Positions 15,250 through 15,759 of a DNA stretch of 64,000 nt are shown here, in pieces. Source of the stretch: Escherichia coli 042 (lineage in GTDB: Bacteria; Pseudomonadota; Gammaproteobacteria; Enterobacterales; Enterobacteriaceae). Under the pieces are notes generated by a model. It did no database searches. It was not told the DNA's origin and worked only from the letters and a program-made list of their open reading frames with translations. How positions within the stretch are numbered: position 1 is the stretch's first letter; the number at the start of each line of letters is the position of its first letter. The DNA lies in NCBI RefSeq assembly GCF_000027125.1, contig NC_017626.1. The stretch is one strand, 5' to 3'. The position numbers and the translations under genes were made by a program.

Positions 15250-15759
15250 CTATTTAAGACATTCCTGCAAATCAGCCAATGTTGCCATCAGTATCATAGA
15301 ATCGACAGGCGATGGTTCAAACCCCACTCGCAGATAAAACTCACGGGCCTGGTCTGATAACGCATGGACCAACATTCCGCGAATACCAATGACTTCAGCC
15401 GCCTGTAGTACTCGTAGACCGGCATCTCTGACCATCGCACGACCGATGCCCTGACCCTGTAATGATTTATCTATTGCCAGACGACCAAGTACTACAACAG
15501 GGATCGGTTCTGGCATATTTCGGCGAAATCGTCCTGTCGCGACATACGTTTCAACGGCGCTGGAAGCAAGCGAATAATATGCCAAAACGTTGCTATACGT
15601 ATCACAGCTAACAAATGTACGTGATGCGCCGGCAAGCTGATTTTTTAGGGCTCTCTGCTTTAGCCAGTTATCCATCGTTTCTACTCCCGAGCAAAAAGAG
15701 GTGAATTGATGCCTTGCCATGAGTGGCTCGGGGGCCTGAATCATTTTTTTTGCTCCCAC
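15250..15759 (-). CDS. GNAT-family acetyltransferase toxin (TacT/ItaT/AtaT-like; presumed aminoacyl-tRNA acetylating toxin)
   Basis: 169-aa ORF (164 aa if started at the ATG at 15744, which overlaps the upstream gene stop as ATGA and has GGGAG about 9 nt upstream). Contains acetyl-CoA binding motif A ([20 protein letters not shown]) and motif B region ([10 protein letters not shown]), and lies directly downstream of a DUF1778-like gene. Absent at this locus in K-12 (from memory). Confidence 0.8.

Follow-up and report, generated by a model that had tools for sequence, protein, structure and literature searches.

The toxin start codon of a TacA2–TacT2-like gene pair in Escherichia coli 042

Related gene pairs and the locus in E. 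coli 042

Gene overlaps of the four-nucleotide ATGA type commonly support termination–reinitiation and are a general feature of bacterial operons. For TacAT2 of Salmonella, whose junction is of this type, we know of no measured dependence of toxin translation on antitoxin translation. In this pair (TacA2–TacT2; PDB 7AK7; Rycroft et al. 2018, PMC5959882) the junction reads CCG TGG GAG CAG GAA AAA TGA; the toxin start lies over the antitoxin stop as ATGA, and an in-frame GTG is derived from the antitoxin Pro-Trp codons. The catalytic Tyr, Y137, and the basic surface residues R88 and K29 are needed for TacT2 toxicity (PMC5959882).

The TacT pair of Salmonella and the KacT4 pairs of Klebsiella plasmids have the same gene order and protein folds as the E. 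coli pair described below, and their toxin start also falls within the 3' end of the antitoxin gene, beside its conserved Trp codon. In contrast, their antitoxin ends in K-P-Q-W-D-V followed by TAA, and TTA or ATA, neither of which is a start codon, lies over the stop. The only possible start, and the annotated one, is the Trp-derived GTG, preceded by an AAGGAA of its own (−5.4 kcal/mol). We read this arrangement in two Klebsiella plasmid loci (L085 and L086), where positions 480–510 hold a GTG taken from the antitoxin Gln-Trp codons (caGTGg), AAGGAA upstream of it and a TAA antitoxin stop. In these two loci the genes share 13 nt; PMC9431474 states an overlap of 14 bp. The same study found a GUG start in 369 of 370 KacT4 genes, reported that the toxin becomes toxic when GUG is replaced by AUG, and noted that the overlap 'suggests translational coupling' (PMC9431474). 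Compared with these systems, the E. coli antitoxin has a tail that is two codons longer, and the toxin start has moved to the stop codon. The E. coli junction resembles general ATGA termination–reinitiation pairs in its three shared bases and in a Shine–Dalgarno sequence that lies 8 nt ahead of the AUG, within the upstream ORF.

The pair was analysed within a stretch of 64,000 nt of E. coli 042 (contig NC_017626.1), referred to as the window. It lies on the minus strand between rne (19352–16167) and flgL (14203–15156, plus strand), and its main features are as follows.

15250–15744, minus strand: toxin gene, 164 aa, GNAT acetyltransferase, assigned as TacT2 orthologue; ATG 15744 to TAG 15252–15250; RefSeq WP_000613626.1
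15741–16034, minus strand: antitoxin gene, 97 aa, TacA/DUF1778 ribbon-helix-helix protein; ATG 16034 to TGA 15743–15741; RefSeq WP_001110447.1
16066–16095, minus strand: sigma-70-like promoter, ATGACA–18 nt–TATAAT, 11 of 12 consensus matches; −10 hexamer at 16071–16066

The antitoxin matched Pfam PF08681 (TacA1, E = 1.2e-26) and, over its full length (residues 1–97, starting MPAAN), chain C of PDB 7ak7 (1.2e-45). The toxin matched PF13508, PF13673 and PF00583, each above the gathering score, and chain A of 7ak7 (3.3e-76), to which it is 76% identical; PDB chains of TacT2, TacT, KacT and AtaT matched it with values from 3e-76 to 2e-15. From the two chain matches and from the Salmonella enterica protein P0062, whose N-terminus is likewise MISTPEPL and whose junction is the same, PDB 7AK7 was identified by sequence as the Salmonella TacA2–TacT2 complex. 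The three residues needed in TacT2 are kept in the E. coli toxin: R88 and Y137 are invariant throughout the alignment, and the window protein has K29. A GNAT-fold toxin, a DUF1778/TacA antitoxin directly upstream of it and a single promoter-like site mark the locus as a GNAT/DUF1778 (TacAT-type) type II toxin–antitoxin module. Judged by these comparisons, the gene pair is the E. coli orthologue of Salmonella TacA2/TacT2. From the 76% identity to TacT2 we infer that the toxin would arrest growth by acetylating aminoacyl-tRNA and would be neutralised by the antitoxin. A literature search for both RefSeq accessions found no paper naming these proteins, and searches on 7AK7 and on TacA2 stripping returned nothing relevant. 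Read-assembly data also contain a cluster of 189 members (P0006) with a 141-aa form of the toxin that runs from Met24 (MDNWLKQ..., S41L).

Unlike TacA2–TacT2, the E. coli pair occupies the rne–flgL site, a different chromosomal location. It forms a cassette of ∼ 880 bp (15232–16113 in the window) between the rne terminator (16148–16125) and the flgL terminator (15198–15226). Of 5426 complete E. coli genomes, 685 carry the cassette between rne and flgL, and Escherichia sp. E4385 has it at this site as well; K-12-like genomes have ∼ 65 nt of unrelated spacer there. By this comparison, the cassette has been inserted between the two terminators or has replaced what stood there.

The promoter-like site lies just downstream of the rne terminator. 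A search of the promoter region for inverted or direct repeats (6-nt seed) gave no hit. A longer antitoxin ORF of 112 aa, opening at ATG 16079 (16077–16079), was rejected. This ORF is disfavoured because the −10 hexamer falls downstream of its ATG, and both the RefSeq protein and the 7ak7 chain start with MPAAN. The ATG at 16079 is thus probably untranslated and the real antitoxin start is probably ATG 16034, which has a Shine–Dalgarno sequence, AAGGA at 16046–16042, 7 nt upstream.

Position of the toxin start

Across the junction the minus strand reads ...ACA CCC GCG CCG TGG GAG CAA AAA AAA TGA in the antitoxin frame and, offset by one base, GTG GGA GCA AAA AAA ATG ATT CAG GCC CCC GAG... in the toxin frame. 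It contains the following elements.

15741–15744, minus strand: ATGA, the toxin start ATG (15744–15742) over the antitoxin stop TGA (15743–15741); RefSeq coding sequences overlap by 4 nt
15744–15751, minus strand: run of eight A (A8), made of antitoxin cAA AAA AAA and the A of the ATG; spacer between Shine–Dalgarno and start
15753–15757, minus strand: GGGAG, toxin Shine–Dalgarno, 8 nt ahead of the ATG and supplied by TGG GAG (antitoxin Trp-Glu)
15756–15761, minus strand: CCG TGG, antitoxin Pro and Trp; the last base of the first codon and the TG of the second form an in-frame GTG (15759–15757)
15718–15720, minus strand: third in-frame ATG (Met9), a candidate start judged implausible

An initial annotation of this DNA had proposed two in-frame toxin starts: one at 15744, overlapping the antitoxin stop as ATGA (minus strand, 15744–15741) and preceded by GGGAG, and an ATG at 15759. 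Reading of the sequence bore out the ATGA, and GGGAG is indeed present at 15757–15753 with an 8-nt spacer. The coordinates of the longer form also hold, with a 19-nt antitoxin overlap and five additional N-terminal residues (M-G-A-K-K), but the codon at 15759–15757 is GTG. The ATG at 15720 had been overlooked, and the run of eight A (15751–15744) went unmentioned. Between the ATG and the upstream stop, 33 codons before it, the toxin frame holds no other start codons. Both codons of the presumed ambiguity exist in frame, but the comparative data decide the question for ATG 15744.

For the comparison we collected 80 homologous loci from different species (toxin identity 63–79%), of which 78 were usable. 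A start codon overlapping the antitoxin TGA (NTGA) was present in 75 of the 78: ATGA in 55, GTGA in 18 and TTGA in 2. The remaining three have the start at the antitoxin stop or at most 6 nt downstream: one shares a single base with the stop, one follows it directly and one comes after a 4-nt gap. Toxin conservation begins right after the Met of this start. As the earlier annotation had suggested, we aligned the N-terminus with those of homologues: I2, A4, P5, E6, P7 and L8 are invariant or nearly so, and this block follows directly on the Met of ATG 15744. The A of TGA opens codon 2, which limits toxin residue 2 to I, T, K, N, S or R; the observed residues agree with this.

The upstream triplet behaves differently. 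It consists of the third base of an antitoxin Pro codon (CCN) and the TG of the Trp codon (TGG), and Trp is conserved in all antitoxin C-terminal tails (PW[ED]...). Among the 73–74 loci in register, the triplet is GTG in 33, CTG in 22–23, TTG in 15 and ATG in 3, and it drifts with the synonymous base of the Pro codon. In 13 loci an in-frame stop lies between this triplet and NTGA, for example a TAA at −2 in L016, L028 and L030. Since the triplet is CTG in 22–23 loci and a stop intervenes in 13, ∼ 30 of the 78 loci are unable to make the extended protein.

The synonymous positions of the antitoxin gene point the same way. Where the last antitoxin codon is four-fold degenerate, its third base, with which the toxin start opens, is A in 22 loci, G in 10, T in 1 and C in none; the Pro codon that precedes Trp has A as its third base in 3, G in 33, T in 15 and C in 22. 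This contrast (Fisher p = 1.5e-4; the 78 loci are phylogenetically related, so that the counts and the test overstate their independence) indicates that selection keeps a start codon at the overlap and not at the upstream triplet.

Initiation signals separate the candidates further. The predicted duplex with the anti-Shine–Dalgarno sequence is −6.5 kcal/mol for ATG 15744, within the top 4.5% of random window positions, and +1.9 kcal/mol, essentially none, for GTG 15759. ATG 15720 gave −2.5 kcal/mol, which is at background level. Over 77 loci, the NTGA starts had a median of −4.2 kcal/mol, with 63 at or below −4, and the Trp-derived triplets a median of +0.4 kcal/mol, with 2 at or below −4. Since GGGAG is itself TGG GAG (Trp-Glu), the Trp-Glu/Asp tail of the antitoxin doubles as the toxin ribosome-binding site.

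These data bear on the view that translation begins mainly, or to a substantial extent, at GTG 15759, giving a 169-aa toxin (MGAKKMIQ) as in the TacT/KacT4 clade. The codon is open and in frame in the window and is present in E. coli, the triplet is GTG in 33 loci, and a metagenome gene call (P0045) used such an N-terminal extension. In TacT/KacT4-type plasmid loci the equivalent GTG, with its 13-nt overlap, is the annotated start. That GTG differs, however, in having its own AAGGAA and no NTGA alternative, whereas GTG 15759 lacks a Shine–Dalgarno sequence and belongs to a triplet that follows synonymous drift and can be cut off from the toxin ORF by a stop. We therefore consider a substantial role of GTG 15759 improbable. 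Minor use of it may occur, because the TacT/KacT4 equivalent is the start in that clade and, as AUG, yields active toxin.

To a start at ATG 15720, which is in frame 8 codons downstream and would give a 156-aa toxin (MARHQF), we attach almost no credence. Its Met9 is unconserved, being Leu in E. coli F637, Gln in Escherichia sp. E4385, His in most genera and, among other residues in homologues, Arg; its duplex is no stronger than background; and a toxin starting there would lose the conserved IxAPEPL.

Other records agree with ATG 15744. In all records inspected, RefSeq/PGAP annotates a product of 164 aa whose gene overlaps the antitoxin gene by 4 nt, and the toxin chain of PDB 7ak7 reads ..SMISTPEPL, although the start choices of gene callers and crystallographers are conventions and not measurements. 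The published TacT2 numbering (K29, R88, Y137) fits counting from the Met of ATG 15744. An 81-nt junction is identical in 674 of the 685 E. coli genomes; the variant in E. coli F637 has GGGAA and has lost the third ATG (Met9 to Leu).

We conclude that the toxin start is almost certainly ATG 15744, in the ATGA overlap. The toxin would be translated from this codon, served by GGGAG 8 nt upstream, as a protein of 164 aa beginning MIQAPEPL. GTG 15759 would be a by-product of the Pro-Trp codons, devoid of a Shine–Dalgarno sequence and inside a translated ORF, and not a designed start. We give the reading as a whole, in which ATG 15744 is served by GGGAG, GTG 15759 is incidental and part of the toxin is made by reinitiation, a probability of about 0.85. 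The arrangement is already annotated and is the conserved, ordinary junction of a known TacA/TacT-type pair.

Translation of the toxin and folding of the junction mRNA

A downstream start that overlaps or adjoins the upstream stop, a feature expected of coupled pairs, is present here as ATGA and in 75 of the 78 loci as NTGA. The conserved overlap and the near-universal TGA stop fit termination–reinitiation, and translational coupling of the toxin to the antitoxin, as the initial annotation proposed, is plausible from the sequence. Ribosomes that finish the antitoxin ORF terminate directly over the toxin AUG; some of the toxin is therefore probably made in this way, which would link toxin output to antitoxin output. 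The toxin has a good Shine–Dalgarno sequence of its own, so that initiation independent of the antitoxin is also possible, and this sequence would permit some direct toxin initiation.

A possible but less likely alternative is that ATG 15744 is the start and the overlap reflects genome compaction, with ribosomes initiating independently at GGGAG and toxin yield unlinked to that of the antitoxin. The Shine–Dalgarno sequence is strong and correctly spaced, as such initiation would need. Structure predictions also leave room for it: across the family they show no significant or conserved fold that would cover the ribosome-binding site, and duplexes between the start region and upstream mRNA had a median z of about −0.1 over the 78 loci, no better than shuffled controls. 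Against this alternative, 75 of 78 loci, at protein identities of 63–100%, retain both the stop/start overlap and the TGA. Also against it, the ribosome-binding site is no more open than its surroundings (median P(unpaired) 0.42 versus 0.44 in the surrounding mRNA over 78 loci; more open in 27 of the 78), and in the window the GGG of the Shine–Dalgarno sequence and the UG of the AUG are predicted to pair with upstream antitoxin codons.

We looked for a fold that would enforce coupling in segments of 121 nt and 160 nt. Neither folded better than its shuffles (z = −0.67 and −0.82). Alignment folding gave weak consensus energies of −2.85 and −5.49 kcal/mol, and no family-wide coupling structure emerged; nor was the ribosome-binding site, over the 78 loci, more closed than the mRNA around it. 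In the window, both the MFE and the centroid structure contained a long-range helix of 10 bp with the following arms.

15811–15820, minus strand: 5' arm of the predicted helix, GUCUGGAUCA, in the antitoxin Arg-Leu-Asp-Gln codons
15743–15734, minus strand: partner of the predicted helix, UGAUUCAGGC, covering the UG of the AUG and toxin codons 2–4

The duplex between 15820–15811 and 15743–15734 has an energy of −13.9 kcal/mol (z = −2.96) and is significant in the window only; additional GC and GGG/CCC pairs are predicted to cover the Shine–Dalgarno sequence. Because 78 such tests were made, we keep the helix as a weak lead only. A 6-bp core of it (GGAUCA/UGAUCY) is present in 30 of 35 enterobacterial loci and in none of 43 distant loci. 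Its pairs are mostly invariant and protein-constrained and thus carry little informative covariation; compensatory-looking changes between the third base of the Leu codon and the first base of toxin codon 3 were seen in four loci (L006, L019, L027 and L028). Given the protein-constrained bases and the absence from the 43 distant loci, the core was rejected as a coupling structure of the family.

The run of eight A and the meaning of the junction

The spacer between GGGAG and the toxin ATG is a run of eight A that is unique to this locus among the 78; the others have A6 or less. The run results from a single synonymous CAG to CAA change that is confined to E. coli. At this point the antitoxin tail reads QKK in E. 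coli and QEK in Salmonella TacA2, and it is the CAA codon that creates A8 in E. coli. A8 is carried by the 674 E. coli genomes with the identical junction and by F637. The 11 genomes with a variant junction comprise one with A7 and 10 others, from which F637 was inspected. Within the 685 genomes the junction sequence with A9 was found in none and that with A7 in one; hence nothing points to phase variation.

E. coli genes are depleted in runs of seven A, such runs are linked to slippage, and slippage motifs that lack stimulators give ∼ 2–10 times the background of 0.055% (PMC4066793). A8 might accordingly be a recoding site, at which a −1 slip on A_AAA_AAA before the UGA, or an extra A, would fuse antitoxin and toxin into a protein of 261 aa. 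The heptamer does stand in the antitoxin frame directly before UGA, a message with A9 would read into the toxin frame, and two fusion proteins of 260 aa (P0001 and P0004) occur in read-assembly data. Features that define slippage sites were found only in part: an in-frame motif leads into a long ORF, but conservation and a stimulatory element are missing. A8 occurs in E. coli only, through one synonymous change, with A6 or less in other genera; no downstream stimulatory structure, stable or conserved, was found; unstimulated motifs would yield a few tenths of a percent of frameshifting; and A9 is absent from all 685 genomes. We regard recoding as extremely improbable. P0001 and P0004 were rejected as evidence for it: both are single-member clusters, one with a deletion in the GTGGGAG region and the other with A7 plus C4, and neither has A9.

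Two loci outside the main pattern have altered A runs. In E. coli F374 (L084) the run is A7, the antitoxin would carry a foreign tail of 24 residues (121 aa) and is flagged as a pseudogene, and the toxin is intact. In S. enterica subsp. diarizonae (L004) the run is one base shorter and the antitoxin ends in WEQENDLRP. These indels may be real variants or assembly errors.

It has also to be considered that a pair of recent, E. coli-specific changes, the A8 run and the 10-bp helix, has modified toxin expression, which we judge very improbable. If true, A8 could give low-level fusion by −1 slippage and an indel-prone junction, and the helix would keep the toxin AUG concealed until ribosomes translate the antitoxin ORF. 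With either change, toxin output would depend more tightly on antitoxin translation than in Salmonella TacAT2.

Returning to ATG 15744 as the start, this reading confirms that the 164-aa RefSeq model is right for the E. coli TacT2 orthologue and is of little import beyond annotation. If the start at the ATGA overlap is right, constructs and residue numbering can follow TacT2. Because the toxin starts at the antitoxin Trp codon in TacT/KacT4 and at the stop codon in TacT2-like pairs, start calls are better made per clade than by rule. Across the family, the conserved C-terminal Trp-Glu/Asp codons of the antitoxin would serve a double purpose, as protein-coding sequence and as the ribosome-binding site of the toxin.
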